A stretch of DNA of 64,000 bases, taken from the IMG/VR virus record IMGVR_UViG_2778261638_000005, positions 1-64,000 of that record; one strand, given 5' to 3'. Below, in pieces: positions 2,897-28,463 of this stretch (position 1 is the stretch's first letter; each line of letters starts with the position of its first letter). The notes beneath the pieces are model-generated. The model searched no databases. It saw nothing but the letters and a program-made list of their open reading frames with translations, and was not told the origin of the DNA. This DNA comes from a virus (Duplodnaviria; Heunggongvirae; Uroviricota; Caudoviricetes). The position numbers and the translations under genes are program-made.

Positions 2897-5371
2897 TTAT
2901 TGCGGAGTGACATCCTGCGGTCGCCACCAGTATGTCTGGTTAAACTCTTTCTTCGAACGTTGCTCCATTTTACGCAAATAGCCTGGTGAAAAATACTCCT
3001 GCATCTGGTTAAAGATCATATGATCGAGAGCCGCCTTCAAGTACCAGAGATTCGCACCTGGCATCAGCCCCTTCCCAAGCTTAACCAGATCACCACCAGT
3101 CTGCTCATTCTTCCCTTCCACAGCATTTAACGGTATGCCCTGAGCAATCTTCACTACGTCATCAACCAGACCAGCTACCGGGCCAAACATCGACGCCAGC
3201 GCGCCGCTTCCGTACCTCGTGTGATCTGACAATAAAAAGTCACCGTAAAGGCCAAGACCACCACCTTTCAGCAGAGCACCAAGCCAAAATTTAGCAGCAT
3301 CTTCTCCTGTCATCTCTCGAGGATTACGACCAGACGCAAGGTCGTTAAGTTGCTGCGACAAAGCGCCAAGAATGGTCGTACTGGCAATAAACGTCGCAAT
3401 ATATGCCGCACGCCCACCAGCAGACGGCATACCCATAGCGCGTGACCAGTGACGCATAACCACCGAGATAGGGAACGATTTAAACAGGAAAACACTTCTC
3501 GTTAATTCACCTTTCCATGTTCCACGCTGAATACCAGAACCGGTTATCAGTTGCTCACGTGCTCCCGGTGTAATAACAGCCATATCAACTTCTTCAGTTA
3601 CGGCACCGAGCAGTTTACGCATTGCCTCAAATTTCACGCGTTCAGGCTCACCAAGATGTTTAACTGCTAAATCAGGGATACGCATAATGCTTTCCGGTGT
3701 CAGCATCGTATTATTACCGTTCCCCCAGTCCTCCTGTTGCGCCAGCTTCCATACGCTCCAGTCTGTGTCAGTAATCCCTTTGCTTTTCAGGATACGAAAA
3801 TCAGAGTCATCGAGGCTACGAAGGTCTGGTGTCCGTGACACTACTTCTCCCAGGCTTCCCATCATAGTTACGCCATAGGCGCGCTTGTGCGCATCTGACC
3901 ATGCTGTAAGCCCACTGGCACGCATTACCGCCGTTGCCGCCCAACGAGACACAGACGGCCCCATATTATCCATCGCCCAGCGGTTAACGCTGCCAAGTAG
4001 AGATTCCATCGCCAGACCAGCTCGGCGCGCCCGCGCAAGCTCAGTACGGTTCGTTGGGTCCATAGCTTCAAGCTGGTTGCGGAATAACTGGTTCATTGGA
4101 AGGTTGGTAACCTTCGCAGACAGATACATGGTTCCAAGATCAGAGAACGATGACAGCAACGCGGATCCGAGTCTGCTGGCAACCAGCCAGTTGCGGATAT
4201 TGTCAGACCATCGCGCGATGTGCGGATTCGCTACAGGCTGTGTCTTTCCGGAAATAAAGTTGTACAGATTCTCTGTGTTGTTCGCCAGCCGCTCGACTTT
4301 ACCGGTTTTACTCGGGTTAGCTGTTGCCGTTTCTGCCTTAACCTGATCAAGAAGGGAGCGGAAAACATGATCGGGGTTTGGACCATATGTTTCCACCAGT
4401 GCAATATCTTTACTGATACCTTCCAGGTGACCGACCATGATTTCCCATAGAGAGCGATCGCCATAAAGTTGCTGATATTGCAGATAGGAATCTGCATCTT
4501 TGAAATATATCTGTCGTGATGCATTACCACGGTTAGCACGTGCGCCGGAAATTCGCATTCCGGTATCAGTAAGCTTATTCAGCCCACCAGTAGCGATCGT
4601 GTTATAAGCCTCTCCAAGAAATGCAGACAACTCGGCATCGTTCATCAGTTGTCCATCGGCTCGGATATAATATTTGCGATCCAGCTTACCTATAACATCG
4701 CTAACCCACTTATCCTTTGATACCGCCCCAACCTTTTCCATAGAATGATGTTGAGGGATCCCCCAGTTTTCGAGATAGCCAATGTCCCCACCAGCATCAT
4801 TAAACCGGCGGCGCAGTAGCTCTGTCACTTCTCTCCACGCCTTAGCACCTTTTCTTGCTTTAGCATTGCCAGTATTTTGCCCCCGCATTTCATATACCAG
4901 GTCACGTACGCCCGCTTCATCTTCAAACAGACCAAAAAAGCGAGGATCAACTGCTTCGAATGCCTCCTGCAATTGACTCAATGCATAATCACGGGTGGCT
5001 TTTGTTCTGGATTCAACAGAGAGGAAATTCGATTTACCGTCTGCATTAAAAGCAATAGTACGGTTAAGAGCGCCAAGTTTCCCATCAGCCCCTTGATAGC
5101 TATTGATAAATTTATCCAATCTCTGACGTGCGGCTATAGTGAGGGCCACACGACGTTTCTTTAATGCCGCTTCTCGCTGTAATTCTTCAGATGCCAATTG
5201 TGCTGCACGATATAGCCGCTCTGATTCGGAAAGTTGTCTCCACGACATCGTGTCATCACGAGCAATGGAGCGCATATTTCGATAAATGCGGTCTTCAATG
5301 TTCTGTATTTCTCGCGCCGTTAACGTGCGCTGCGCCGCCTGCTGGACCGCTTGTATACATTCCTGTCTCAT
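2897..5371 (-). CDS. Internal virion / ejection protein (824 aa), T7 gp15/gp16-like position
   Basis: Large ORF in a run of three large genes between the tail tubular genes and the tailspike; coiled-coil-rich N-terminus; assignment by position. Confidence 0.45.
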   Translation of the reverse strand: MRQECIQAVQQAAQRTLTAREIQNIEDRIYRNMRSIARDDTMSWRQLSESERLYRAAQLASEELQREAALKKRRVALTIAARQRLDKFINSYQGADGKLGALNRTIAFNADGKSNFLSVESRTKATRDYALSQLQEAFEAVDPRFFGLFEDEAGVRDLVYEMRGQNTGNAKARKGAKAWREVTELLRRRFNDAGGDIGYLENWGIPQHHSMEKVGAVSKDKWVSDVIGKLDRKYYIRADGQLMNDAELSAFLGEAYNTIATGGLNKLTDTGMRISGARANRGNASRQIYFKDADSYLQYQQLYGDRSLWEIMVGHLEGISKDIALVETYGPNPDHVFRSLLDQVKAETATANPSKTGKVERLANNTENLYNFISGKTQPVANPHIARWSDNIRNWLVASRLGSALLSSFSDLGTMYLSAKVTNLPMNQLFRNQLEAMDPTNRTELARARRAGLAMESLLGSVNRWAMDNMGPSVSRWAATAVMRASGLTAWSDAHKRAYGVTMMGSLGEVVSRTPDLRSLDDSDFRILKSKGITDTDWSVWKLAQQEDWGNGNNTMLTPESIMRIPDLAVKHLGEPERVKFEAMRKLLGAVTEEVDMAVITPGAREQLITGSGIQRGTWKGELTRSVFLFKSFPISVVMRHWSRAMGMPSAGGRAAYIATFIASTTILGALSQQLNDLASGRNPREMTGEDAAKFWLGALLKGGGLGLYGDFLLSDHTRYGSGALASMFGPVAGLVDDVVKIAQGIPLNAVEGKNEQTGGDLVKLGKGLMPGANLWYLKAALDHMIFNQMQEYFSPGYLRKMEQRSKKEFNQTYWWRPQDVTPQ

Positions 5372-5376
5372 TTAAT

Positions 5377-7179
5377 TTAACCTCTCAAGAAACACGCCAC
5401 AGCGACATCAAACAGGCTGGAATCCTGTATTGCCTGCTCACTTTCCCTGTTCGCTTCATCCAGTACTTCACGCGCGCTGCGCGATTGTGGATTACCATCA
5501 TCATCCAGCACGGTGATTATCATGTCCGGAGATTCAAGCAGCGAGTCTTCAGCTATACGCAGATCAATATCTCCTGCCGGATCTGCCATCATTTTTTGTT
5601 CTGTCTGTTGCAATATCTTACCGGGCTCAAAAGGAGCTACTTCGTCTGGCGTCCTGACCTCTGCTGTTTTATAGAATGAAACAGCCTGAGCATTAAGTTC
5701 ACTTTCTGCCTGCTGTCGCCGTGCCAGTTCTGCTCGAGCTTCAAAAAACTGACCGCCAGGCTCATGCGGTGCCAACGCGTTACGGGAAAATTCCAGGCGT
5801 TCTTGTGCCTGCCGGATTCGTTGGTCAATATCGCGAAGTCTGGCCTGTTTATCTGATCGAGCACGAGATAAAGCCTTACCGCTACCGGTTGGCTCTTCTG
5901 CAAGAATTTGTGCGCGCTGTTCAGTGAGATTTTCAATAATTCGTTGGCTATTAGCGATTTCAGACTGGTAAACCTGTCTATCGCCACGCGGCAAAAGCTG
6001 CGCGGCCTGTTCTTCAAGCAACCGATTTTCTATAGCGCGCGCCGTTACTCCATCATCTACAGATGACAGAGCCTCATTAACTGCCTGAGACAGCAGACTC
6101 TTGCGCCCAGGAATTTCACTGAAAGATGCAGACTCAACAATGCTGGCAACGTCTACAGGTCTCCCCTGGCTAACATCAGACATGGCTTTTCGCAGAGCCT
6201 GAATGTGCGAATTACGCGAAAGCACGTTGATCGGAACGCCGGGAGCAATATCAATTTCAGCATGATGAGCGGCATTCGCCGCCAGTGCAGCATCGATATC
6301 AACTGGTGAAAAATTTGGTGCGCTTGTAGGCTCGCCGCGAGAGTTAATAAATCTGCCGACACCACCAAACGCCACCCCAAGAACAGCATCAATAGCAATT
6401 GCCTGTCGATCCAACACATCATACTGGTTAGCCATTTCGCTATAGCCACCATCACGAAGCGTTTTTGCAGTAAGCCCACGCTGTGCCATACCGAACGCAA
6501 TATTTGTACCTGCGGCATAGGCAATATCTGGCGTTGCACGTACTGCTGTTGCTGCGGCGCGTCGCACTGAACTTTCACCCGTCCGCGCAAGCTGAGCCGC
6601 CACACCTTCCGCCAGCGCACCACCAGCACGTAACCCGAGGCTCATAGGGATCAGTGTTCCGGCACCAGCAGTAATACCCTGCACTAATCCCGCTTCCTGC
6701 GCCGTCCTGAAATCAACACCCTGTGCTGTCAGCCGTTCAAACTCAGAAAAACCCTGTAGAGAAGTTACCGCCGCAGCACCTCCGACCGGACCACCGAGCG
6801 TTGTACCGACAACAGCCTGCCCGCCCATATCGAACAACCCATAAAGAACCTGCCCGGCGGTTCCGGTTGTCGCGGCATCAGGCGTCAGCCGCTTAACCTG
6901 CTGCTCTGCTAGTTTTCTCTGCTCAGCAATGTATGAAACTGAAGTGTCATTGAGCGAGGTGTTTTCGTTAACAAACTGAGCAATCGGGGATACGATTTTA
7001 TCCATCCCTGCCCATAGCAACTGATCTGGCTTTGCCACCAGCCCGGAGTACAAACCAGACAATGCCGCTCCTACAGCGTTGTCGAAAAAACCAACATCGC
7101 TGTTAAAGCCAGCTGGATTTGATGCTGCTTCGTCAAGCTGCTGATTCTGGTTTACTGGATTAAGGCCAAAGTAACTCAT
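5377..7179 (-). CDS. Internal virion protein (600 aa)
   Basis: Gly/Ala-rich large ORF, stop/start coupled to neighbours (7176..7179 overlap); position in virion module. Confidence 0.4.
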   Translation of the reverse strand: MSYFGLNPVNQNQQLDEAASNPAGFNSDVGFFDNAVGAALSGLYSGLVAKPDQLLWAGMDKIVSPIAQFVNENTSLNDTSVSYIAEQRKLAEQQVKRLTPDAATTGTAGQVLYGLFDMGGQAVVGTTLGGPVGGAAAVTSLQGFSEFERLTAQGVDFRTAQEAGLVQGITAGAGTLIPMSLGLRAGGALAEGVAAQLARTGESSVRRAAATAVRATPDIAYAAGTNIAFGMAQRGLTAKTLRDGGYSEMANQYDVLDRQAIAIDAVLGVAFGGVGRFINSRGEPTSAPNFSPVDIDAALAANAAHHAEIDIAPGVPINVLSRNSHIQALRKAMSDVSQGRPVDVASIVESASFSEIPGRKSLLSQAVNEALSSVDDGVTARAIENRLLEEQAAQLLPRGDRQVYQSEIANSQRIIENLTEQRAQILAEEPTGSGKALSRARSDKQARLRDIDQRIRQAQERLEFSRNALAPHEPGGQFFEARAELARRQQAESELNAQAVSFYKTAEVRTPDEVAPFEPGKILQQTEQKMMADPAGDIDLRIAEDSLLESPDMIITVLDDDGNPQSRSAREVLDEANRESEQAIQDSSLFDVAVACFLRG

Positions 7180-16692: not shown

Positions 16693-16985
16693 TCCTGTTC
16701 ACTGGCCTCTTTGGCCATCTTCAAATACTGTTCAGGGCAATGCGCCATAACGCGCTGAAACAGTTCCAGCGCCAGATTGCGTTGCCCCTCATTAAATGCC
16801 ATTGCCATAGCGTCCATCGGTGAGATAGCGGAAAACACACGGCCTTTCTCCAGCACCGACCAGACAACGCGACGCCCCTGTTCACTGCTCATGACAAAGC
16901 GAATGTCATCAATTTCACGCTGCGCCATGTCACGTTGCTTACGGGCGTTTTCTTCTTTCAGTTGATCGTCTTCGTAATCTGTCAT
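16689..16985 (-). CDS. Hypothetical protein (98 aa)
   Basis: ORF translationally coupled between portal and scaffold genes. Confidence 0.4.
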   Translation of the reverse strand: MTDYEDDQLKEENARKQRDMAQREIDDIRFVMSSEQGRRVVWSVLEKGRVFSAISPMDAMAMAFNEGQRNLALELFQRVMAHCPEQYLKMAKEASEQE

Positions 16986-18661
16986 TGTGATTGCCCACCC
17001 TGACCACTAACTGCATTCGCCATAGCTGACAAAACACTCGGATCCGAAGTTTTAGCTTCGCTTAGCGTCTTGGCACCCTGTGCCGCCGCCATCCCCATCG
17101 CCATCATTTGTTGCTGCTGTTGTTGCTGTGCCCGTTGCTGGCGAGTCTGCTCAACCTGTTCCTGCGGAACAATGACGGTTGGAGACACTCCGGACATATC
17201 AGCGAATGCATCGATCGCCTGATCAACGTTGAGTTTGTCGAGAGCTTCTGGTTTCGCTTGCGCAAGTTGACCAATGAAGTTGACCGTAGACGCCAGACTG
17301 GACAGGCCGATAGACTTCTGCGCCTGAGCCATGACGGAAATGTATTCGACCTTCAGGGGCATACCTTCCATCGCGTCAGGCGGTGGCGGCAGCATTTTTT
17401 TACGCACCATCATCGAGAAAGCGCGGTCAATGAGAGGATTAAGACATTCGTCGTTCAGACGCTCCAGAACCGGCCCCAACATCAGAAGTTTTTCTTCTTT
17501 CATTTCGATCACCGCTTCAACAGGCATCGAGCGGGTATTGATGTTCTGCAACATCATGAACAGATCGACAAAGTAGGCGCTGTTAATGATTTGGCGAGTG
17601 TCCTGAATGTCTGCTACCAGATCTGCTGTACTGGGGTTAACCAGATAAGCAGGCCTGAAACCATCCTGACCAGTAATCTGATCGATATACGTGATGTCGC
17701 CAGGAAGAAGGGAGGCGCGCTGATTCTTGAGGGAAGTCGGAGCAACCATCGGCGGATTGGTGGCTTTATCAATCAACTGCGACTTGCGCTTCTGGAGAAG
17801 CTGCAATGCCTTAACAGGTCCAAGCGCCAGCATACCCGGGCATGATGATCCATAAACATCTTCGCCGTTAACTTCCCAGCGCGGAGCCATAATTGGAAAC
17901 TCATCGAATCCGGACTCACGCAACAACTTGTCGTTATCGCCACCAACCTCGTAATAAACCGATTTGAATGGCTTGTTCTTGCTATCCAGCTTCGATGTAT
18001 CGCGGTCAATGTTCGGGTAAACCGAATGCATCACTTCAATCCACTTCTCGTAGGTGCCGCTTTCCCACATGCTTTTTACGGATTCGCTGACGTTATTTAG
18101 CCCGAACTCCTGAACAAGCTGACGAACAGTCATAGAGAACTTGCGAAAACAGGTGTCCACACTGCCACGAGGTGAGTTAGCCAGGTAGTAACTGCCTATC
18201 GGGAATGGCATTGTGCGAATGATGTCCTCGTCATCCTCCAGCACTGCCATTGCACCAGTGCTGTATGTGCCGAGGCTTCCGTATAACTGCGGCAGAGACT
18301 GATAGAGATTCGACTTATTGAACATATCGTTCATGCGGTTCTGCACCGCCTCAAGCCACAACTTAACAGGGCCATAATCCATCATTTCAGGATCTGGCGT
18401 AGCCAGGCGAAACCACGGACGCGCGGGGCTTGTGATGCCTGACATCATGCCGCTGGCGAGAGTGCGCGCCGCCATAGTCCCGGTCGAATCAATAATGCGT
18501 GTATTGCGTCGATCGTTACGGTTGACCTCAGAAGTCAGAAAGCGGGAACCACGCGGGTTGATGTAATCACTCAACTCGCGCCAGTGCGGCTCGAACGACT
18601 GACGCTCGCTTTCAAGTTGTGCGAACTGTTTGTTCAATCGCTCTTTAGTTGTTTCCGCCAT
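16982..18661 (-). CDS. Portal (head-to-tail connector) protein (559 aa)
   Basis: Size and position upstream of scaffold/capsid; Gln-rich C-terminal tail typical of T7-type portals. Confidence 0.7.
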   Translation of the reverse strand: MAETTKERLNKQFAQLESERQSFEPHWRELSDYINPRGSRFLTSEVNRNDRRNTRIIDSTGTMAARTLASGMMSGITSPARPWFRLATPDPEMMDYGPVKLWLEAVQNRMNDMFNKSNLYQSLPQLYGSLGTYSTGAMAVLEDDEDIIRTMPFPIGSYYLANSPRGSVDTCFRKFSMTVRQLVQEFGLNNVSESVKSMWESGTYEKWIEVMHSVYPNIDRDTSKLDSKNKPFKSVYYEVGGDNDKLLRESGFDEFPIMAPRWEVNGEDVYGSSCPGMLALGPVKALQLLQKRKSQLIDKATNPPMVAPTSLKNQRASLLPGDITYIDQITGQDGFRPAYLVNPSTADLVADIQDTRQIINSAYFVDLFMMLQNINTRSMPVEAVIEMKEEKLLMLGPVLERLNDECLNPLIDRAFSMMVRKKMLPPPPDAMEGMPLKVEYISVMAQAQKSIGLSSLASTVNFIGQLAQAKPEALDKLNVDQAIDAFADMSGVSPTVIVPQEQVEQTRQQRAQQQQQQQMMAMGMAAAQGAKTLSEAKTSDPSVLSAMANAVSGQGGQSQ

Positions 18662-18675
18662 TTCAATGACTCCGG

Positions 18676-18882
18676 TTACTGACCAAGTAGCGTTTTACCG
18701 CTGGTATTAGCGGTTGATGTGTCGCCCTGAGAACCGGTAAGCAGCGTAGAACTACGACCAGCAGCAGCGCGACGGCGACGAGTTTCTTCGTCGCGGGCAT
18801 CAACAACGGCGGCATCCTGCTCCTGTGGTGCTGCCTGAACTTCTGGTGTTGCAGGCACTGATGGTGAGCTACCCATGCACAT
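18676..18882 (-). CDS. Small hypothetical protein (68 aa), low-complexity
   Basis: ORF just upstream of portal gene; may not be real. Confidence 0.25.
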   Translation of the reverse strand: MCMGSSPSVPATPEVQAAPQEQDAAVVDARDEETRRRRAAAGRSSTLLTGSQGDTSTANTSGKTLLGQ

Positions 18883-18972
18883 ATCAATGACTCCGTACGC
18901 AATTAAATTATTACCAATTTAACCACATATGATTTATTTATCGTAGTCGGTTGACATTTAACGCACGAATTA

Positions 18973-18987
18973 TTACCTTTCAGGTAA
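18973..18987. promoter_or_regulatory. Palindrome TTACCTTTCAGGTAA, second copy of the regulatory cassette (upstream of portal-region genes)
   Basis: Identical 15-mer to 2354..2368; nearby CATATGTGGTTAAATTGGTAA element at 18911..18931. Confidence 0.5.
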
Positions 18988-19309
18988 CCAAAAAGTTCAT
19001 TCCGGTTACTAACCTGACTGGCTTGTCGTTAAATTGAACAGGTGGAGTGAGCTTTTATTTTGAGCAGTACGGCGTATGGCACATGCGCCGATAGCGGCCT
19101 GGATACGTTTAAGGGGCACCCTCCCTTGCTCGGGCAAACGAACCAGGTAGCCGGAATGTGCAAGTCGAGCGGTTTTATTCCGCGCACGGGGATTCACCAT
19201 CCCGGCGATTCGGTGTGACGCCTCGGAAGAGACGAGGGTACAACGATGAGAGCATTTATGGAGCCGCGACAAAGTGTGGTGCCTTAACAGGCTAAGTGCT
19301 CTCAGCGTT

Positions 19310-19386
19310 GTGGCATTAGCTCAGTCGGACAGAGCAACCGCCTTCTAAGCGGTTGGTCGCAGGTTCGAATCCTGCATGCCACGCCA
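19310..19386 (+). tRNA. tRNA-Arg (anticodon UCU), phage-encoded
   Basis: Cloverleaf by eye: acceptor GTGGCAT/ATGCCAC, D-arm GCTCAGTCGGACAGAGC, anticodon arm ACCGC-CTTCTAA-GCGGT, T-arm GCAGG-TTCGAATC-CTGC, 3' GCCA. Confidence 0.85.
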
Positions 19387-19548
19387 GAATCACGCCTAAG
19401 GACCGTGATGCCAGAAGTTCCAGTGCTTGGCGGTGATGGTTTCCCTTGAAGGACTATCACCGCACTTTTTACAGCAGGACGCCATTGCGATGACTTCATG
19501 CTGTAAACCCGTACAGCCACGGAAGGAAGAACTCATTGCTTCCAGTTC

Positions 19549-19572
19549 GCCCGGTTCGCCGGGCATTTTTTT
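19549..19572 (+). terminator. Intrinsic terminator GCCCGG-UUCG-CCGGGC + U7 downstream of tRNA, 12 nt upstream of the Gp49-like start
   Basis: GC stem, UUCG loop, run of 7 T. Confidence 0.6.
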
Positions 19573-19583
19573 AAGGTGAGATT

Positions 19584-19940
19584 ATGAACGACCAGCAAAT
19601 CGAAAAAGAAATCGTTGAGAAAGGCAAAACGGCACCGCGAGTTACGCCTCAATATATCGAAAGCATCATTCTTGAAGAGCATTTCTTTACTGCTTATGAC
19701 GGCATTCGTGCCGCCAATATGGGCGTTGGCGATTCATGGACAGCGCATAACTCTACAGACCTCCTGACTTTCTGCGTACTGGTGCTGAAGAATGGCTTCA
19801 CCGTCACCGGAGAGAGTGCCTGTGCAAGCCAGGAAAACTTTGATGCAGAAATTGGTCGGAAGATTGCCCGGCAGAATGCTGTAAACAAAATCTGGATGCT
19901 CGAAGGTTACTTGCTGAAGCAGAAGCTAAGCGAGCAATAA
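19584..19940 (+). CDS. Gp49-like (N4 gp49 / Sf6 gene 66 family-like) protein, 118 aa
   Basis: Sequence resembles the small prophage protein family common in enterobacterial prophages (recollection); AAGGTGAG RBS; opposite strand to flanking genes. Confidence 0.5.
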   Translation: MNDQQIEKEIVEKGKTAPRVTPQYIESIILEEHFFTAYDGIRAANMGVGDSWTAHNSTDLLTFCVLVLKNGFTVTGESACASQENFDAEIGRKIARQNAVNKIWMLEGYLLKQKLSEQ

Positions 19941-19960
19941 CACCGTGACATGTCACAAAC

Positions 19961-19987
19961 AGCCAGCCGATGAGCTGGCTTTGTTTT
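19961..19987 (+). terminator. Intrinsic terminator AGCCAGC-N6-GCTGGCT + UUGUUUU after Gp49-like gene
   Basis: 7-bp stem followed by T-rich tract; lies between convergent genes. Confidence 0.5.
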
Positions 19988-20030
19988 ATCCTCACCAGAG
20001 GATATCAGCAGCATTATCCCCTCCAACGGA

Positions 20031-21506
20031 TTAAGCATAGGGATCGTAATCTGTGATGGCCTTGCCTTGCTGGTTCTGCTGCCCGGGAATTCGCAGACGC
20101 TTCGACACAGGGAACGCAAACGTCAGCAGTAGCGCATCGCCTTTACCCGGCGAACGCCCAAGCCGCTCCTTGATATCTTCCTTCGGTTCGATAACGATTT
20201 TACCGTCCACTCGAACTTTGTACTCAGCCGCCGACAGGTCGTCCGCTGTTTCCTGGTCATCAAGCATGCCACCCAGCCTCAGCCATGTCTTGCATGAGTT
20301 GAACATCTCCCCACGCTTGTTGAGCATCTGCGGGTCAGTAGACGCGCCACCGAACGGAACAAGTTGCCATGTACGACCCCAGCCGTCACCGATTGACTTC
20401 AGACCAGTTCCGTAACCGAAGTCGATGAACACTGCGTCAGCCTGGTACTGGTCTTCAAAGTCAGCGATACGCTTCGCCATAATCAGATCGTCAGTGGTCT
20501 TGTTGCCAGTCCACAGCACCTTACTGTGCAGCCCCTGCCGCAGGTATATCACAGCGTCATCAACGCCGGAGTATGCCGGGTCAACGCCGATTATCACCGG
20601 AGCATGTGCAACCTGCGCAGCGGTTACCACCCGTTTCATTGCCTCGTCAGTAAGGCCAGTAGGGATAAACTGCAATTCAGATGCATCCGGGAATATGCCG
20701 CGCACACGGATTTTAACGAAGTCGCTGTCTTCCCCGTAGTCATCAACCCATTTCTGCAACTGCTGTTTGTTAGTGCCTTCCACCGTCCGGCTGTCAATCT
20801 GCGCACACTTCCAGCGGTGTTTGTACTTGCGGAAACATTCACGGAAACGCCCGGTGTTACGCGTCGGGTTTCCGAACGCCACCCAGATAATCTCAGTGTC
20901 TTCGTCCGTTAGCGCACCCTCGGCAACTTCCCACACCAGATCCGCAATGTTCGACGCTTCATCGAATACCACGATGATGCGTTTGCGCTCGTTGTGTAGT
21001 CCGGCGAATGCCTCAGTGTTGTGCTCAGACCAGGGGATTGCGTCAGCTCGCCACCGCTTGTCGTGCCCAGGGTCATTGCTGTACATCGCGGTAGCGGTAC
21101 AGGTAAACCAGTCTTTCGTGATAGCAAGGTTCGACCACTTGATAATTTCCGGCCAAGTCTTCGTTCGTAGCTGGTTGTCGGTGTTGGCGGTCACCACGAC
21201 CTTACAATCCTCGCAAGTGGACATGCCCCAGTTGATCAGCATTGAGATGAATGCGGATTTACCAATACCGTGACCCGAAGCACGTGCCAGCATAAGCGGC
21301 TGATAGCGCGTCTCTGGATTCTGCAGGTGATCACGTATCTCTCGGAACGCATCAGCCTGCCACTGACGTGGACCGGTGGCATGTGCTAATTCAGTCCCCT
21401 CTTCCCCCCACGGGAACGCATAGAGGGCATAGCCAAGCGGATCGTGAGTGAACCCTGCAATATCCTCGATCAACTGCTCTTCAGGAGATAACGCTGTATC
21501 TGTCAC
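20031..21506 (-). CDS. Terminase large subunit (491 aa)
   Basis: N-terminal ATPase with Walker A-like GHGIGKS, C-terminal nuclease-type acidic residues; overlaps small-subunit gene. Confidence 0.85.
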   Translation of the reverse strand: MTDTALSPEEQLIEDIAGFTHDPLGYALYAFPWGEEGTELAHATGPRQWQADAFREIRDHLQNPETRYQPLMLARASGHGIGKSAFISMLINWGMSTCEDCKVVVTANTDNQLRTKTWPEIIKWSNLAITKDWFTCTATAMYSNDPGHDKRWRADAIPWSEHNTEAFAGLHNERKRIIVVFDEASNIADLVWEVAEGALTDEDTEIIWVAFGNPTRNTGRFRECFRKYKHRWKCAQIDSRTVEGTNKQQLQKWVDDYGEDSDFVKIRVRGIFPDASELQFIPTGLTDEAMKRVVTAAQVAHAPVIIGVDPAYSGVDDAVIYLRQGLHSKVLWTGNKTTDDLIMAKRIADFEDQYQADAVFIDFGYGTGLKSIGDGWGRTWQLVPFGGASTDPQMLNKRGEMFNSCKTWLRLGGMLDDQETADDLSAAEYKVRVDGKIVIEPKEDIKERLGRSPGKGDALLLTFAFPVSKRLRIPGQQNQQGKAITDYDPYA

Positions 21507-22217: not shown

Positions 22218-22556
22218 TCACACTATTAATTTCGTTTCATGCCAGCCTTTAGTCACCCAGCATTGCGAGTCACCATTACACGGGCATGAATTAACTGGAA
22301 CTCTCTCGCCGCACTTACCGCAACGTTTTCTGCTGATCGATTTTATACGCCCGCGCACGCGTGCATCATCCTGGCGGATCAGTAACGCTATATACTCACC
22401 AAATTCGTAAGGCGCACGCCCGGGGCGACGCGTGGCACAGTTACGCTCCAGCATTTCAATTTCCTGAGCATCAAGCACAATTTCCAGCTTACGCACACCA
22501 GATGCAGCTTGTCTGGCTCTCTGAGCGGCTTTGCGCTCTGCTGATGATTTAGCCAT
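22218..22556 (-). CDS. Hypothetical protein with C-terminal Cys-rich zinc-ribbon-like motif (112 aa)
   Basis: CGKCG...CPCNGDSQC motif; basic N-terminus. Confidence 0.4.
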   Translation of the reverse strand: MAKSSAERKAAQRARQAASGVRKLEIVLDAQEIEMLERNCATRRPGRAPYEFGEYIALLIRQDDARVRGRIKSISRKRCGKCGERVPVNSCPCNGDSQCWVTKGWHETKLIV

Positions 22557-22917
22557 TCTGATTTTCCTGCATCATGAGAAATACAATCATGGCGGCGCGG
22601 AGTGGGTTGTTGTCTATGGTAATAAATTCACAAAATCTATCCGCCTCCCACCAATATTCATTCTTCATTCCAGGATTATTTCTTTCGTATGCACATATGC
22701 TGATCTGATGTTTTGCGATTACAGGCCATGAGGCGCTCGGATCATTGCAGTAGTCAGGTAAAGGGTTTAATGGCTCAAAAGTTGTATCAGCATTTCCGTA
22801 ATACCATTTGTTGGTGTTATTCCCTGATGTTTCCGGTTTACATGCCCAAAGGCCTTTAAAAATTATGTCTCCTACCATTCTGTTAATTTCAAAATCACTT
22901 AACTGTGAATAGTCCAT
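22549..22917 (-). CDS. DUF2591-like phage protein (122 aa from MDYSQLSDFEINRMVGDI)
   Basis: N-terminus resembles the DUF2591 family seen in enterobacterial prophages (recollection); TAATG stop-start overlap with upstream gene. Confidence 0.45.
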   Translation of the reverse strand: MDYSQLSDFEINRMVGDIIFKGLWACKPETSGNNTNKWYYGNADTTFEPLNPLPDYCNDPSASWPVIAKHQISICAYERNNPGMKNEYWWEADRFCEFITIDNNPLRAAMIVFLMMQENQNG

Positions 22918-23300
22918 TACTTCACCTCCTGCGGCGGTTCTGGTAGCGGCATCCAATTGATTACATCGCATTCAGGGATGCTGATATCATCACCAAGCCA
23001 CCCTTGACCTTCAGACCAGCATTGCACGTAATACCCGTATTCTGTGTTCACTACGCACCACTGCGCGTCGTCCGGCATTTGCTCACTACAGCTTATCCAA
23101 TCATCCGGAGTTACCGGAGAGTTGCCCGATAGCTGGTTCAACTTGTAAGTTTGGCTTACAGGTTCTGCTTCCAGCGATGCCAGTGCAATTCGTGCCAGCT
23201 CTTCCGCTTCTTCTGCTGGCAGTACAACGTTGCTACCAGGTCCGTATGTTTCGCGCCACTGCTTGATTGTCAGCAGTCGCTCTTTGGTTATAGTGGTCAT
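22917..23300 (-). CDS. DUF551-like phage protein (127 aa)
   Basis: C-terminal W/C-rich motif WISCSEQMPDD...WCVV...W typical of DUF551 (recollection). Confidence 0.5.
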   Translation of the reverse strand: MTTITKERLLTIKQWRETYGPGSNVVLPAEEAEELARIALASLEAEPVSQTYKLNQLSGNSPVTPDDWISCSEQMPDDAQWCVVNTEYGYYVQCWSEGQGWLGDDISIPECDVINWMPLPEPPQEVK

Positions 23301-25785: not shown

Positions 25786-25859
25786 AAATCATTTGATACC
25801 GTTTTGAATTTTTTTTGATACCACCCAAAACGGCACAACGAAAAATTATTTGATACTAA
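25786..25859. repeat. Right-end transposase-binding-type repeats (ATTTGATAC motif x3)
   Basis: AAATCATTTGATAC 25786..25799, TTTTGATACC about 25814..25823, AAATTATTTGATACT 25843..25857; inverted relative to the left-end copies. Confidence 0.6.
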
Positions 25860-26593
25860 TCGGGAGTGCTTTTAGGGTATGGCTGAACCCTGAATAGCTT
25901 AGTATTTAGCCGCTTCCTTGCTCGCTTGTTCAGGAACCTGATGTAGCGATACTGATTAAATTTGTGCACCACGGCACGCTCTTTATTAGCCCGTAAATAC
26001 ACGCCTCGTTGTCCACCGCGCTTAATTGCGTTCATCGTTATCTCGTGATACCACTCACCATCCAGCTCGTAGAACGTGCTTTCATGGCTGCCAATAAAAT
26101 CAAAATTCGACGCCTGATACACAACGCCTGCGCGTCCGCAGCGTTCGTCAGCAAAGGACTGAACCCACTCCACTGACGGATACAGTAATCTGATAACTTT
26201 CAGCGCGTAGCTGATGGCCCGTGATTCAGAGTTGCGGGGCATGTCGTCGTGTAGCCACATGCGATTCAACTCCATATAGCCCCGGTTATCCGTTTCAAGC
26301 ACGACACGACGACCTGAGTTGGGGTTAAGGGCATATCCCCACTGGAGAACGCCAACCAGATCGCGTCCGCTGAATACTCCCAGGTGGAGGTAAGAGTTAT
26401 TCACAAAACGGCGGGAATAGTGCTTTGTCTGAATAATTGTGCGGGCCAGCCAGCAGGATATGGTTTCAACGCGCAGCTCCTTTGAACCATAGCCAACAAT
26501 CTGGCCTTCATACTCAATAACGCACGGTTTCGTCAGAATGCGTGATTTTTTCTCTTTTCCCACAATGTTTCTCCGTGGGATGCTCGCAGGCAT
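25856..26593 (-). CDS. mom: Mom DNA-modification protein (start codon uncertain)
   Basis: Directly downstream of and overlapping com, last gene before the element end as in Mu; about 245-aa ORF. Confidence 0.7.
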
Positions 26594-26702
26594 TCAGCAT
26601 TATGATGTGACGTTTGCAACGCGGACACCTGATTTCAATGTGATCAAAGGAATCCGCCTTAAATAACAGTTTGTTGCAGTTTTTACAGCGAATTGATTTC
26701 AT
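26514..26702 (-). CDS. com: Com zinc-finger translational activator of mom (62 aa)
   Basis: [32 protein letters not shown]..., Cys4 zinc finger, 62 aa, overlaps mom start; matches my recollection of Mu Com. Confidence 0.85.
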
Positions 26703-26776
26703 CTCACCTCCTTTGCATCAATTCGCCACTATCTTAAAAAACATCATGGGTTGAGTGTGGTTATTGGGGCATAATC

Positions 26777-26811
26777 GATCTGTATTACCGATCGATTTAA
26801 TTGATTCGATC
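26777..26811. promoter_or_regulatory. Cluster of three GATC (Dam) sites upstream of com-mom (Mu Pmom-type regulatory region)
   Basis: GATC at 26777, 26790 and 26808 within 35 bp; in Mu the equivalent cluster governs methylation-sensitive repression of mom. Confidence 0.65.
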
Positions 26812-27378
26812 GTCGTTTTCTATATGCGCTCGTTTCGCGGGGTGTTTTTTATACAGAGTTGACAGGGCCACATCGTAGATCAATGCAACCTGCTTGCGGG
26901 GGATTCCTTGTGCTAATAAACGCCCGGCCTGCTCCCATTCCGCTTTGGTTAGTTTAGGTGGTCGCCCACCAATACGGCCTTTATTTCTGGCGGCAGCAAG
27001 TCCAGCCATCGTTCGCTCGATGATTAGTTCTCGTTCCATTTCAGCCAGGGCACCCATAACGTGGAAGAAAAAACGCCCCATTGGAGAAGATGTGTCTATG
27101 CTGTCGGTCAGACTGCGAAAATTAATCCCTCGCTCCCGTAGTTCCCCGACGAGAGAAATCAGATGTTTCATGCTTCGCCCGAGGCGATCCAGTTTCCAGA
27201 CAACCAGCGTGTCACCTTTTTGAAGGCGCTTTAAAGCGCGTTTTAATCCCGGTCGGTCTGTCTTTGTCCCGCTTAATTTATCTTCAAATATTTGTTCACA
27301 TCCTGCACAAACAAGAGCGTTTCGTTGCAGGTCTGTATTCTGGTCATTTGTTGATACCCTTACATAGCCAATCAGCAC
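26797..27378 (-). CDS. gin: Serine DNA invertase, Gin/Hin/Pin/Cin family (193 aa)
   Basis: N-terminus MLIGYVRVSTNDQNTDLQ with catalytic Ser, C-terminal HTH; adjacent to invertible fibre segment. Confidence 0.9.
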   Translation of the reverse strand: MLIGYVRVSTNDQNTDLQRNALVCAGCEQIFEDKLSGTKTDRPGLKRALKRLQKGDTLVVWKLDRLGRSMKHLISLVGELRERGINFRSLTDSIDTSSPMGRFFFHVMGALAEMERELIIERTMAGLAAARNKGRIGGRPPKLTKAEWEQAGRLLAQGIPRKQVALIYDVALSTLYKKHPAKRAHIENDDRIN

Positions 27379-27432
27379 TCTGGATCTCCCGTTTAAAAGC
27401 GCAAATCATGCCATGCAGGCCGGAAACAACCA

Positions 27433-27460
27433 TTATCTAAAACCTCGGTTTACAGGAAAC
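27433..27460. repeat. gix-type recombination site (left inverted repeat) TTATCTAAAACCTCGGTTTACAGGAAAC
   Basis: 26 of 28 nt identical to the reverse complement of 30496..30523; fits gix/hix-type crossover sites. Confidence 0.8.
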
Positions 27461-28463
27461 GGTAAACAGGGCTGGTAACGCCGTTCAAAAGACAGGCGAT
27501 ACCTTATCCGGTGGGCTTACTTTTGAAAACGACTCAATCCTTGCCTGGATTCGAAATACTGACTGGGCAAAGATTGGATTTAAAAATGATGCCGACAGCG
27601 ACACAGATTCATACATGTGGTTTGAAACAGGCGACAACGGCAATGAATATTTCAAATGGAGAAGCAAACAAAGCACCACAACAAAAGACCTGATGAATCT
27701 TAAATGGGATGCTTTGTCTGTTCTTGTTAAAGCCCTTTTCAGCAGTGAAGTAAAAATATCGACAGTCAATGCACTGAGGATATTTAATTCATCTTTTGGT
27801 GCCATTTTTCGCCGTTCTGAAGAATGCCTGCATATCATCCCTACACGAGAGAATGAGGGGGAAAATGGTGATATAGGGCCACTACGTCCCTTTACGCTTA
27901 ATCTCAGAACTGGCCGCATAACTATGGGGCATGGTCTGGATGTTACAGGAGATATAACAACTAACGCCTGGGTGTATGCAAACAGGTTTGCTATTAATAG
28001 TGGCTCAACCTCATGGATTGATATGCGAAACCAGAATGTCATTTTTGGTAGAAACGCAGTATCAACAAGTTCTGCGCAGGCTTTGTTAAGACAAGACCAT
28101 GCAGAACGCAAATTTTTTGTCGGTGGACTTGGTAACTACCAGTTTGGTTTTTACATGATTAATAACTCAAGGACAGCCAATGGCACCGATGGTCAGGCGT
28201 ACATGGATAATAACGGTAACTGGCTTTGTGGCTCGCAAGTTATTCCTGGCAACTATGGCAATTTTGATTCCAGATATGTGAGAGATGTTCGCCTGGGTAC
28301 GCGAGTTGTTCAATTGATGGCGCGTGGTGGTCGTTATGAAAAAGCCGGACACGCAATTACCGGATTAAGAATCATTGGTGAAGTAGATGGCGATGATGAA
28401 GCCATCTTCAGGCCAATACAAAAATACATCAATGGCACATGGTATAACGTCGCACAGGTGTAA
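27441..28463 (+). CDS. Alternative tail-fibre C-terminal segment (Sv'-like), promoterless in the present orientation
   Basis: Frame is open back through the gix site (starts NLGLQETVN, the same junction peptide found in the expressed fibre); ends ...INGTWYNVAQV like the expressed fibre. Confidence 0.7.
   Translation, partial: NLGLQETVNRAGNAVQKTGDTLSGGLTFENDSILAWIRNTDWAKIGFKNDADSDTDSYMWFETGDNGNEYFKWRSKQSTTTKDLMNLKWDALSVLVKALFSSEVKISTVNALRIFNSSFGAIFRRSEECLHIIPTRENEGENGDIGPLRPFTLNLRTGRITMGHGLDVTGDITTNAWVYANRFAINSGSTSWIDMRNQNVIFGRNAVSTSSAQALLRQDHAERKFFVGGLGNYQFGFYMINNSRTANGTDGQAYMDNNGNWLCGSQVIPGNYGNFDSRYVRDVRLGTRVVQLMARGGRYEKAGHAITGLRIIGEVDGDDEAIFRPIQKYINGTWYNVAQV

Follow-up and report, generated by a model that had tools for sequence, protein, structure and literature searches.

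Organization of the locus

The window (the whole 64,000-nt stretch of DNA analysed here) carries a Uetakevirus prophage of the phiV10/epsilon15 type, and phiV10 and its relatives match the locus at 96–97% identity with the same gene order. A block of plus-strand features lies there between minus-strand genes, as follows.

16982–18661, minus strand: portal gene, flanking the plus-strand block
18676–18882, minus strand: 68-aa gp3-like ORF (phrog_831), flanking the block
18951–18979, plus strand: putative promoter identified by conservation; −35 TTGACA (18951–18956), 17-nt spacer, −10 TACCTT (18974–18979)
18973–18987, either strand: operator palindrome TTACCTTTCAGGTAA (TTACC-N5-GGTAA), overlapping the −10 hexamer
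18991–19056, plus strand: 5′ leader stem; long hairpin, variable at its tip, forming the outer stem in the minimum-energy fold
19065–19246, plus strand: RNA core with helices P1, P2/P3, variable P4, P5 and P6, located with covariance model R1
19240–19311, plus strand: closing stem ACAACGAUGAGAGCAUU ... AAGUGCUCUCAGCGUUGU, 17 covarying pairs
19310–19386, plus strand: tRNA-Arg, anticodon UCU, CCA encoded (ARAGORN; Rfam RF00005)
19389–19409, plus strand: small hairpin AUCACG...CGUGAU after the tRNA, read from the sequence
19430–19472, plus strand: predicted terminator T1, a 13-bp hairpin (19430–19463) with loop UUUCCCUUGA, then CUUUUUACA
19549–19572, plus strand: predicted terminator T2, GCCCGG-UUCG-CCGGGC (hairpin 19549–19564), then A and U7
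19584–19940, plus strand: Acb4-family gene, 118 aa, PF13876 (N4 Gp49/Sf6 gp66)
19961–19988, plus strand: predicted terminator T3, a hairpin (19961–19980) between the convergent Acb4-family and TerL genes
20031–21506, minus strand: TerL gene, flanking the block and convergent with the Acb4-family gene

The original prediction had placed a tRNA, a Gp49-like ORF and terminators on the plus strand between the terminase and portal genes, and all of these are present. It had also called the block an insert; this is not a recent one, the block being kept, with variations, in all Uetakevirus relatives examined. The roughly 400 bp upstream of the tRNA, described as noncoding, GC-rich in parts and unexplained, are noncoding (no ORF with a Pfam match in 18883–19309) and unevenly GC-rich (35% in 18883–19064 versus 58% in 19065–19309), but they hold a promoter and operator followed by a structured RNA and so are no longer without explanation.

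Promoter and operator

The promoter hexamers and their spacing are conserved in an alignment of five divergent Uetakevirus sequences. The −10 hexamer TACCTT is weak, and a scan for consensus promoters therefore missed it. From the sequence, we infer that this promoter is active. Of the six matches that a scan gave for the palindrome overlapping it, five fall within the phage (2354, 18973, 22117, 25564 and 25626); the other, at 36869, is outside it and has half-sites separated by 7 nt. Chance would give 0.16 matches, and none of 100 shuffles reached the six of the scan. The epsilon15 record labels the homologous site as a repressor binding site, and the site at 2354, identical in sequence to that at 18973, lies upstream of an antirepressor-like ORF (2427–2702).

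The promoter and operator are thus followed by some 600 nt of untranslated, highly structured RNA, with a variable cargo gene at the end. Tentatively, and with slightly less than even confidence, we read the block as a repressor-controlled accessory cassette of phiV10-like phages that runs opposite in direction to the virion genes.

A conserved structured RNA

The core is a conserved structured RNA of about 165–185 nt, with at least five helices plus a pseudoknot, whose helices are kept through two-sided changes at a level above controls. Covariation was measured over 29 pairs in a MAFFT alignment of 40 diverse copies: these were 98.3% paired and 12 of them had changed on both sides, a result that none of 500 shuffles reached, with slid controls at 30–48%. 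Conserved G–U pairs set the strand of the RNA as plus. The R1 covariance model scores the window copy at 136.8 bits (E = 2e-40) and finds it once in the window. Among its parts are the loop region of the helix P1 hairpin (UAUGGCACAUG), an invariant stretch (GGUAGCCGGAAUGUGCAAG), the CACC:GGUG pseudoknot of P5 and the GAAGAGA loop of P6; the loops of P3 and P6 may contact each other.

Long stems flank the core. The 5′ leader stem covaries, reading AAAAGUUCAUUCC/GGAGUGAGCUUUU in the window versus GAAAGCGCAC/GUGCGCUUCC in Klebsiella and other relatives, and its 3′ strand shares a motif with the closing stem. The 17 pairs of the closing stem are 92.1% paired, with 27 cells changed on both sides (score reached by 0 of 500 shuffles); the stem encloses a hypervariable insert, 37 nt in the window (19257–19293) and about 40 to 130 nt among relatives. 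Its 3′ strand runs 2 nt into the tRNA. This junction, GCGUU|GUGG, is shared: the tRNA begins there in relatives, and in every tRNA-bearing copy the closing stem meets the 5′ end of the tRNA at this point; more generally, the closing stem is always followed by a tRNA or a tRNA-like cloverleaf.

Neither outcome that would have refuted the original prediction occurred: the tRNA holds up, and no known RNA family accounts for the region upstream of it. In a permissive search of Rfam 15 (E up to 10) with the window block and one lambdoid copy, tRNAs were the only matches, and at gathering thresholds ten loci yielded tRNAs alone, all other scores being far below gathering; the families covered include ROOL, GOLLD, C4, AgvB, AsxR, Y RNA, RNase P, tmRNA and ribozymes. 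None of the records examined annotates the core RNA. Our literature search found no description of it, and full-text searches with its invariant strings returned unrelated primers only.

Of the readings that we considered, the least probable is that the region functions not as RNA but as a gene for a small protein or as a site in the DNA, for instance for packaging, recombination or replication. Short ORFs are sometimes annotated over the core (mEp460, mEp390 and Ayreon) and some frame is open across the short core in 35 of 40 copies; against this, the copies fall in all modulo 3 length classes (19/13/8), variable columns lack codon periodicity (32/30/27), the ORFs of the core have no Pfam match, two-sided helix changes with strand-specific G–U pairs are an RNA signature, and the core is found at four unrelated places in genomes, each time on the strand that the local operon transcribes. 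A protein-coding reading of the core was rejected on the first three of these grounds.

Terminators and the cargo gene

Terminator-like hairpins are enriched on the plus strand of 18600–20200, with five sites versus 1.4 ± 1.1 in shuffles. T1, T2 and T3 each have the sequence of an intrinsic terminator, a G+C-rich hairpin followed by a U-run. The T1 hairpin folds at −20.1 kcal/mol (z = −4.4). That of T2 (−12.7 kcal/mol), with six G–C pairs and a UUCG loop, has the canonical form; T2 is kept in relatives, and the epsilon15 record calls it a rho-independent terminator. T3 folds at −13.0 kcal/mol, and the phiV10 record annotates a terminator at this place. The small hairpin after the tRNA is kept in all Uetakevirus variants compared.

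The original prediction had one terminator between the tRNA and the ORF, ending 12 nt before the start codon. The distance stands, the U-run of T2 stopping 11 nt (11–12 nt, depending on the count) before the ATG of the Acb4-family gene. There are, however, two terminators there, and the one next to the gene is not the first after the tRNA but the second. A consensus scan found no promoter-like site between the terminators and the ORF, and expression of the ORF must therefore depend on read-through, as had been proposed.

The ORF matches PF13876 at 118 bits (cut-off 27; E = 2.7e-34) over profile positions 1–82 of 82. The founding member of PF13876 is SPO1 Acb4, and 3′3′-cGAMP was bound by each of the eight homologues assayed (bioRxiv 10.1101/2024.12.30.630793). 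The mode of action known for SPO1 Acb4 and these homologues is that of a tetramer which binds 3′3′-cGAMP or related signals and blocks CBASS. The ORF is far above the family threshold yet only weakly similar to SPO1 Acb4 itself (direct match to PDB 9e4w, E = 0.0076). Its 118-aa product is probably a cyclic-dinucleotide sponge against CBASS, and the family assignment gives a functional label to a gene called hypothetical in phiV10-like phages. What fills the cargo slot varies: a Klebsiella relative has a Tad2-like (PF11195) protein in it, and elsewhere there are different ORFs or hardly any. Aligned with each other, the Acb4-family product and the Tad2-like protein from Klebsiella showed no similarity, and these are therefore distinct cargo genes in one slot. 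In the window, the core would be transcribed together with the tRNA and this putative anti-CBASS gene.

Distribution of the core

The core occurs in 1,071 of 5,426 complete E. coli genomes and is annotated in none of them; about one fifth of these genomes thus hold a structured RNA without an Rfam entry, an annotation in the records examined or a mention that we could find. Its taxonomic range, as defined by searches of phage, plasmid, E. coli and IMG/VR sequences, includes phage P1, Stx-converting and other lambdoid phages, and the phiV10/SPN1S group. Among 80 genome-contig loci picked by a 14-mer and searched with R1, a Kosakonia sacchari locus (L135) held the only real copy.

In lambdoid phages without a recognisable N gene, the core lies just 3′ of the early-left promoter beside the repressor gene, starting about 45–50 nt past the predicted early-left start and directly after the repressor gene. 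It sits where temperate phages put their earliest regulatory signals. In P1-like phage-plasmids, it lies between trnI and ban; in P1 itself it is 2.6 kb from Pban, with no terminator before ban, and consists of the core alone without flanking stems. In SopranoGao (Lastavirus), it follows the lysis genes. In all four settings the core has the same orientation as the operon around it, and across these unrelated contexts it keeps a 19-nt invariant single-stranded segment, the pseudoknot and invariant loops. R1 found one copy per phage and none on the early-right (PR) side.

Parts of the leader come and go independently. Of 124 distinct loci, 85 have TTTTTAC (a T-run plus AC) at 200–800 nt 3′ of the core, and most of these, though not all, show a T1 hairpin. 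T1 hairpins also occur in lambdoid early-left leaders, where the stems differ in sequence yet remain self-complementary (GGCGGUGAUGG/CUAUCACCGCC, GGCGGUACCAG/CUGGUACCGC and GGCGGUGGCAG/CUGACCACCGCC). The core is absent from 65 of 80 prophages that share the first early-left gene, and the tRNA-like module and T1 are retained in most of the core-less ones whose sequence was inspected. The core is deleted in epsilon15, where T2 and the cargo gene remain, in locus L119, where the cargo gene remains, and in L093, where T1 remains; conversely, locus L059 has lost the cargo ORF and kept every RNA module. The core is a self-contained, separable module: core-less leaders, the cargo-less L059, the core-only copy of P1 and the position in SopranoGao all identify it as separable cargo.

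Possible functions of the core

With confidence that falls a little short of even, we favour the reading that the core is a processed, trans-acting early RNA carried in an accessory cassette, a cis-acting antiterminator being the main rival. The cassette would be off in the lysogen and be switched on soon after infection or induction. Its primary transcript would be cut at both flanking long stems, which resemble RNase III substrates, and by RNase P at the tRNA 5′ end, freeing a stable RNA of about 180–250 nt. Through its invariant loops this RNA would bind, in trans, a factor conserved across Enterobacterales, and would join the tRNA and sponge protein as cargo of a host-takeover or counter-defence cassette. 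The tRNA may aid the decoding of rare AGA codons or replace a targeted host tRNA, and the sponge gene would be expressed from transcripts that read through T1 and T2.

Beyond the conserved promoter and operator, the covarying RNA structure and the separability of the core, further observations favour such a model. The invariant stretches, the 19-nt segment and others, are kept across unrelated phage backbones that have no neighbouring protein in common, which points to a partner from the host rather than the phage. The closing stem abuts the tRNA 5′ end and covarying long stems flank the core, which supports processing. Finally, the Acb4-family and Tad2-like genes in the cargo slot support a counter-defence setting. 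Against the model, most copies stand right at the start of an early operon, ahead of terminators, where a cis element fits equally well; in addition, two canonical terminators precede a sponge gene that should be expressed early and abundantly, and suppression of termination by the leader is the easier account of that arrangement. Complementarity of the core to the rest of the 64-kb window was limited to 11–12-nt matches in chance number, and an antisense or immunity RNA with targets in the same phage was rejected on this count. More broadly, and with a little less confidence than in the trans-acting reading itself, the core may represent a new class of host-factor-binding phage RNA, either an antiterminator that replaces N or a trans decoy that disables a conserved enterobacterial defence or RNA-processing factor and is delivered with the tRNA and the nucleotide-signal sponge. 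A true trans decoy would add an RNA member to the counter-defence repertoire of phages.

Unlikely in our judgement, although it is the main rival, is a cis-acting processive antiterminator. The nascent core would bind its own polymerase, either alone (put-like) or with Nus factors (rrn-like), rendering it resistant to T1, T2 and Rho, letting it cross the long untranslated leader into the downstream genes, and replacing N/nut in N-less lambdoid phages; if true, this would explain the early programme of phages of the ST64B/SfV/mEp460/LLS type. The position of the lambdoid core is that of nutL and putL. The first ORF of lambdoid carriers is acidic and has no arginine-rich motif, and no N-like gene is seen; an N-like protein encoded 3′ of the lambdoid core was rejected for the same reason. 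LLS/mEp460-type phages were described as lacking N by Casjens and colleagues, whose guess was a put-like RNA (PMC12315714). Both T1 and T2 have the canonical form and precede the cargo gene with no promoter between. There are also resemblances in sequence, judged against the boxA, boxB and boxC consensus sequences: the GAAGAGA loop of P6 is like the boxB loop of lambda nutL, and the 3′ strand of the closing stem reads (G)UGCUCUUU...GUUGUGG in many copies, similar to rrn boxA followed by boxC in the rrn order.

Several observations weigh against antitermination. T1 is kept in most of the inspected early-left operons among the 65 of 80 that lack the core, so that read-through of T1 needs no core; likewise, the core-less L093 has T1 and the core-less epsilon15 has both T2 and a cargo gene. 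No terminator follows the P1 core, which directly precedes ban, the SopranoGao core follows lysis genes, and no second copy is found at the early-right promoter. Comparison with lambda nut and rrn leaders gives a mixed picture. The leader position, the purine-rich loop, the UGCUCUUU-like segment and the GU-rich segment after it are shared, but N protein is absent and the likeness is short and post hoc. A boxA would be GCUCUUUA, single-stranded and by boxB; the UGCUCUUU-like segment is found in about half of the copies, varies (GCUCUC, GCGCUC), is paired within a covarying stem and is missing from P1.

HK022 put offers the closest parallel for an RNA acting in cis. It too is an early-left leader RNA in a lambdoid phage without N, with terminators after it, and it needs host factors only; this setting is true of the lambdoid copies of the core and untrue of P1 and SopranoGao. 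In contrast, put has two stem-loops in about 70 nt and is present at the early-left as well as the early-right promoter, whereas the core is larger, occurs once per phage and, unlike put, is often missing from otherwise identical leaders. Identity of the two was rejected: neither BLAST nor inspection by eye of the early-left leader, putL included, revealed similarity, and R1 is silent on the HK022 immunity region.

Less probable again is that the structured region is a processing and stability scaffold with no role in trans, which would shield the leader from Rho and RNase E and whose stems would give RNase III and RNase P sites, yield mature tRNA and protect the 5′ end of downstream mRNA. The modules are indeed bordered by long stems that reappear throughout the leader, an RNase III site is annotated in this region of epsilon15, and a tRNA or tRNA-like cloverleaf always follows the closing stem. 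A scaffold has no need, however, for a 19-nt invariant single-stranded segment, a pseudoknot and invariant loops in four contexts; the P1 copy has the core without the stems, and the core is often gone where the tRNA-like module and T1 persist.

We regard as very improbable a riboswitch- or attenuator-like sensor of a cellular or immune signal that would tune termination at T1 and T2 and expression of the sponge. A complex, pseudoknotted and highly conserved fold 5′ of terminators and a regulated cargo gene is what such a sensor would look like, and GUUGU has two possible pairing partners, one in the closing stem and one in the 3′ strand of the tRNA-like module. Yet 150–500 nt, including the whole tRNA, separate the core from T1, so that no overlapping alternative fold with the terminator is apparent; the genes 3′ of the core are wholly different from one context to the next, and the P1 copy has no terminator.

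Comparison with other RNAs

Other identities were considered and fit less well. RNase P RNA, suggested by an apparent likeness to E. coli rnpB (GUGCAAC..GAGAGCA), was rejected, the best local alignment score of 18 being equal to the shuffled mean (18.3 ± 2.0). The prophage sRNAs AgvB, AsxR and Pas are located elsewhere or are in Rfam, and none matches the core. P1 c4 and P4 CI are antisense immunity RNAs of the lysogen, about 77 nt long, cut by RNase P and with target sites nearby; the core, by contrast, has no Rfam C4 match and no complementary sites in the window. Lambda PreS (LPR1) is a precedent: this phage RNA is transcribed from the early-left operon and its action on the host is in trans (bioRxiv 10.1101/2024.10.31.621285). 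PreS, however, is 68–88 nt, Hfq-dependent and base-pairing, and ends at tL2a, whereas the core, a bigger RNA of several helices with no pairing target found in the window, has no sequence in common with PreS.

Structured phage RNAs next to tRNA genes, or transcribed together with them, include ROOL, GOLLD and T4 RNAs C and D. ROOL and GOLLD measure 580–800 nt versus about 180–250 nt for the RNA described here, which matches no Rfam model; unlike them, it has Enterobacterales as hosts, and its units are early and repressor-controlled.

The tRNA itself had been predicted correctly: tRNA-Arg(UCU) is solid in both ARAGORN and Rfam (RF00005, 73.3 bits against a gathering threshold of 29; E = 9e-16). 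The suggestion that it supplies AGA decoding is plausible but modest in effect, since AGA makes up 47 of 7,882 codons in 25 phage ORFs (6.0 per 1,000), compared with an E. coli average of about 2 per 1,000. These codons are concentrated in tail genes and two small genes, with zero in the head, portal and terminase genes. The argN and argO genes of lambdoid and Stx phages also encode tRNA-Arg(UCU), for the rare AGA codon; unlike them, the tRNA of the window lies in an opposite-strand early cassette, with its 5′ end fused to a structured RNA.

Organization of the opposite-strand block

Between the portal-side genes and the large terminase gene (TerL) lies a + strand block with the following features:

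16982–18661, minus: portal gene, flanking the block
18676–18882, minus: gp3-like ORF of 68 aa (phrog_831)
18951–18956 and 18974–18979, +: candidate promoter (−35 TTGACA, 17-nt spacer, −10 TACCTT)
18973–18987: perfect palindrome TTACCTTTCAGGTAA, overlapping the −10
18991–19056, +: long stem 5′ of the core, found in Uetakeviruses and similar to the closing stem
19065–19246, +: structured RNA core (helices P1–P6)
19240–19256 with 19294–19311, +: closing stem of 17 bp, 3′ of the core
19310–19386, +: tRNA-Arg(TCT)
19430–19463, +: terminator-like hairpin T1 (−20.1 kcal/mol)
19549–19564, +: hairpin T2 (−12.7 kcal/mol), its U-run ending 11 nt before the ORF ATG
19584–19940, +: ORF of 118 aa, the cargo gene
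19961–19980, +: hairpin T3 (−13.0 kcal/mol)
20031–21506, minus: TerL gene, flanking the block

The original prediction had a tRNA-Arg(UCU) and a Gp49-like gene here, opposite to the surrounding operon. ARAGORN and the Rfam tRNA model (73.3 bits) accept the tRNA, the sole one in the 64-kb window, the ORF matches Pfam PF13876 ('N4 Gp49/Sf6 gene 66', E = 2.7e-34), and the bounding portal, gp3-like and TerL genes are all on the minus strand. Terminators also follow both the tRNA and the ORF as predicted, but two of them, not one, separate the tRNA from the ORF. A consensus scan of 18600–20200 returned five terminator-like sites versus 1.4 expected, three of them strong + strand hairpins; folding z for T1, T2 and T3 lay between −3.3 and −4.4. 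Because the sequence contains no minus-strand U-run after T1, T2 or T3, late minus-strand transcription can probably cross the block.

The block is 96–97% identical, with the same gene order, in phiV10, O157 typing phages 9 and 10, ZX5 and other Uetakevirus genomes, and relatives from Klebsiella, Enterobacter and Salmonella retain the arrangement at 67–84% identity. Close and divergent relatives share the block, which is therefore conserved in the genus rather than recently inserted. Past about 25.8 kb (25856–28463 onward), a Mom-family gene, a Gin/Cin-type invertase and a tail-fibre gene adjoin the Uetakevirus genes, and another set of phage structural genes comes next. The window thus spans either two phage-derived regions or a mosaic.

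Candidate promoter and operator

The roughly 400 bp upstream of the tRNA, earlier called unexplained, are indeed noncoding and GC-rich in parts, and now resolve into a candidate promoter and operator plus a structured RNA. The first 180 bp (35% GC) are highly conserved among divergent Uetakeviruses, and the candidate promoter is conserved in the same promoter-region alignment. TTACC-N5-GGTAA occurs at five sites within the Uetakevirus part of the window; the scanned palindrome pattern gave six matches versus 0.16 expected, a number reached in 0 of 100 shuffles. The homologous palindrome in the epsilon15 record is annotated as a repressor binding site. We infer repressor control of the block as a unit that would be silent in the lysogen and switched on early; an operator-controlled promoter is a reasonable reading, partly anticipated by the epsilon15 annotators.

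An identical copy of TTACCTTTCAGGTAA lies at 2354–2368, with a similar upstream arrangement. The + strand ORF behind it (2427–2702, 91 aa) matches phrog_450 and also, at a weak level, an antirepressor family; 2354–2702 forms a second opposite-strand unit, in the gap between two minus-strand tail genes.

A structured RNA core upstream of the tRNA

In a MAFFT alignment of 40 diverse core copies, RNAalifold predicted 24 pairs, 11 with compensatory changes. Curating the fold by hand gave 29 pairs, some of them in a pseudoknot that joins the P5 loop (CACC) to a GGUG further downstream. This structure was 98.3% paired, with two-sided changes at 12 pairs (93 cells); 0 of 500 shuffles reached any measure, and slid controls gave 30–48% pairing. 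Conserved U-G and G-U pairs identify the + strand as the folded one. Among the invariant segments are UAUGGCACAUG (first hairpin), AGCGG, GGUAGCCGGAAUGUGCAAG, GGCG..GGUGUGAC and the P6 loop GAAGAGA. The closing stem pairs at 92% and has 27 cells with two-sided changes; it encloses an insert that ranges from about 40 to 130 nt among copies. Protein coding was ruled out by analysis of the region's reading frames.

Long stems with the 3′ strand (G)AGUGCKCUY...GKUGUG repeat two to three times per leader (19240–19311 and 18991–19056 in the window; 2915–3000 in comparison locus L006). The motif is reminiscent of rrn boxA plus boxC, and its stems of RNase III substrates.

The Rfam scan proposed for the upstream region matched no family to the core, and no known RNA family accounts for it. 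The core is absent from Rfam 15, from the annotation of all records examined and from full-text literature searches; it is a new family among phage structured RNAs co-transcribed with tRNAs.

Distribution of the core

The core is common, and present in model phages. Unrelated phages carry unannotated DNA that is about 82% identical to the GC-rich part at 19065–19309 (58% GC). Among lambdoid phages (cdtI, mEp460, Ayreon, Stx2c phages and others) the core comes immediately after the repressor gene and shares its strand; in P1, P7, D6, SJ46 and RCS47, the first 165 nt of the region are found between trnI and ban. The core region was found in 1071 of the 5426 complete E. coli genomes and also in 591 plasmids, most of them P1-like; no annotated feature lies under any of the matches listed. 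A pattern from the first core hairpin recovered at least 120 IMG/VR contigs with 102 distinct cores. The IMG/VR loci include about 40 from Uetakeviruses, between gp3/portal and TerL, about 65 lambdoid ones, 100–150 nt after a LexA-type repressor gene, and a few that are P1-like. The covariance model built from the core alignment found one copy in the window (136.8 bits) and full copies in BUCT708, mEp390 and Klebsiella phage SopranoGao.

The BUCT708 copy (OM816834, 'Stenotrophomonas phage', L252 2439–2598; 158.6 bits) is much like those on several IMG/VR contigs (L036, L048) whose host is unknown. Phages of Enterobacterales make up most of the other carriers, and the deposited host, or a recent transfer, may be worth a look. 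The lambdoid contig L022 (oriented) has, downstream of its repressor gene, two diverged cores on one strand, at 6659 and 7464 and so about 800 nt apart.

Leader modules around the core

Where a true tRNA follows the core, it is tRNA-Arg(UCU), starting at the same junction of GCGUU and GUGG. In most lambdoid copies its place is taken by a fold resembling a cloverleaf, GUUGUGGU...ACCACAAC, which is accepted by no tRNA detector and no Rfam model. Of 124 distinct loci, 85 have TTTTTAC downstream of the core, and most of these matches, lambdoid included, comprise a GGCGG...CCGCC hairpin and then CUUUUUACA. T1 stem sequences vary between groups yet stay self-complementary, with a pyrimidine-rich loop; T1 is a conserved module in its own right. 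In L006 (2737–2860) and L255–L334 (about 2650–2900), a tRNA-like module, GUUGUGGUGAAU...CACCACAAC, precedes a T1 hairpin, and many SfV/ST64B-type prophages keep both in their early-left leaders, including most of those inspected among the 65 of 80 without a core.

Epsilon15 (L004 1809–1990) has neither core nor tRNA; judging from its junction, DNA appears to have been deleted between two copies of the UUCCCUUGA motif, one in the P3 loop and one in the T1 loop. In L093 another deletion joins P3 to the tRNA-like module; L119 is also core-less.

AGA has a frequency of 6.0 per 1000 codons across the phage ORFs, about threefold the E. coli average, so supplementation of AGA decoding by the phage tRNA is plausible but modest. 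It is concentrated in tail genes and two small genes; codon counts found none in head, portal, terminase or Acb4-family genes. Use is densest in a pair of small minus-strand ORFs (22218–22971) lying upstream of the terminase genes, with four AGA each in 112 and 140 codons.

A variable cargo slot

PF13876 was founded by Acb4 of Bacillus phage SPO1, a tetrameric sponge for CBASS cyclic dinucleotides, and 3′3′-cGAMP was bound by all eight Acb4 homologues tested (bioRxiv 10.1101/2024.12.30.630793). The window ORF matches the Acb4 crystal structure 9e4w weakly when compared directly (E = 0.0076). Klebsiella phage ST512-KPC3phi13.3 has in the same slot a Tad2-like (PF11195) anti-Thoeris domain protein with no sequence relation to the window ORF on pairwise comparison; other relatives have different ORFs, or just eight codons. 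The position behind T2 is therefore a variable cargo slot, whose known occupants are, from family matches, predicted counter-defence sponges. Placement in such a cassette would also fit a spare tRNA replacing a targeted host tRNA. The tRNA, terminators and Acb4-family gene are ordinary and already in public records, where the gene is still labelled hypothetical.

Action of the core in trans or in cis

In cdtI, a terminator and then a TTGACA-16-CATAAT promoter come after the repressor gene, and the core starts about 50 nt further on; the Ayreon record annotates a terminator and promoter at matching spots. No N-like gene was found in the core-bearing lambdoid phages examined.

Tentatively, we favour a processed, trans-acting early RNA that would bind a conserved host factor. 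RNase III at the flanking long stems and RNase P at the tRNA 5′ end would release the core, which would need only transcription. Core-less leaders that keep the other modules, together with bare or displaced copies in phage P1 and SopranoGao, argue for such separable cargo.

That the core is instead a cis-acting antiterminator appears unlikely. Its early-leader position in N-less lambdoid phages would suit that role, as would two canonical terminators preceding a gene expected to be expressed early and short resemblances to boxB, boxA and boxC, in rrn order. However, of 80 prophages whose first early-left gene is identical, 65 lack the core, and most of those inspected keep the tRNA-like module and T1; without a core, L093 retains T1 and epsilon15 retains T2 and the cargo gene. 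L059, lacking the cargo ORF, retains all RNA modules. The phage P1 copy is a bare core 2.6 kb from the promoter, with no terminator before ban, and the SopranoGao core is located after the lysis genes. A passive processing scaffold is improbable and a sensor or attenuator very improbable, and we give almost no credence to the region not being an RNA.

HK022 putL shows no similarity to the core. Core function is directly testable and bears on the question of N-less lambdoid phages. A 2025 lambdoid survey found no N in phage LLS either, guessed at a put-like RNA, and placed the LLS repressor and Cro closest to those of mEp460_4F5 (PMC12315714).
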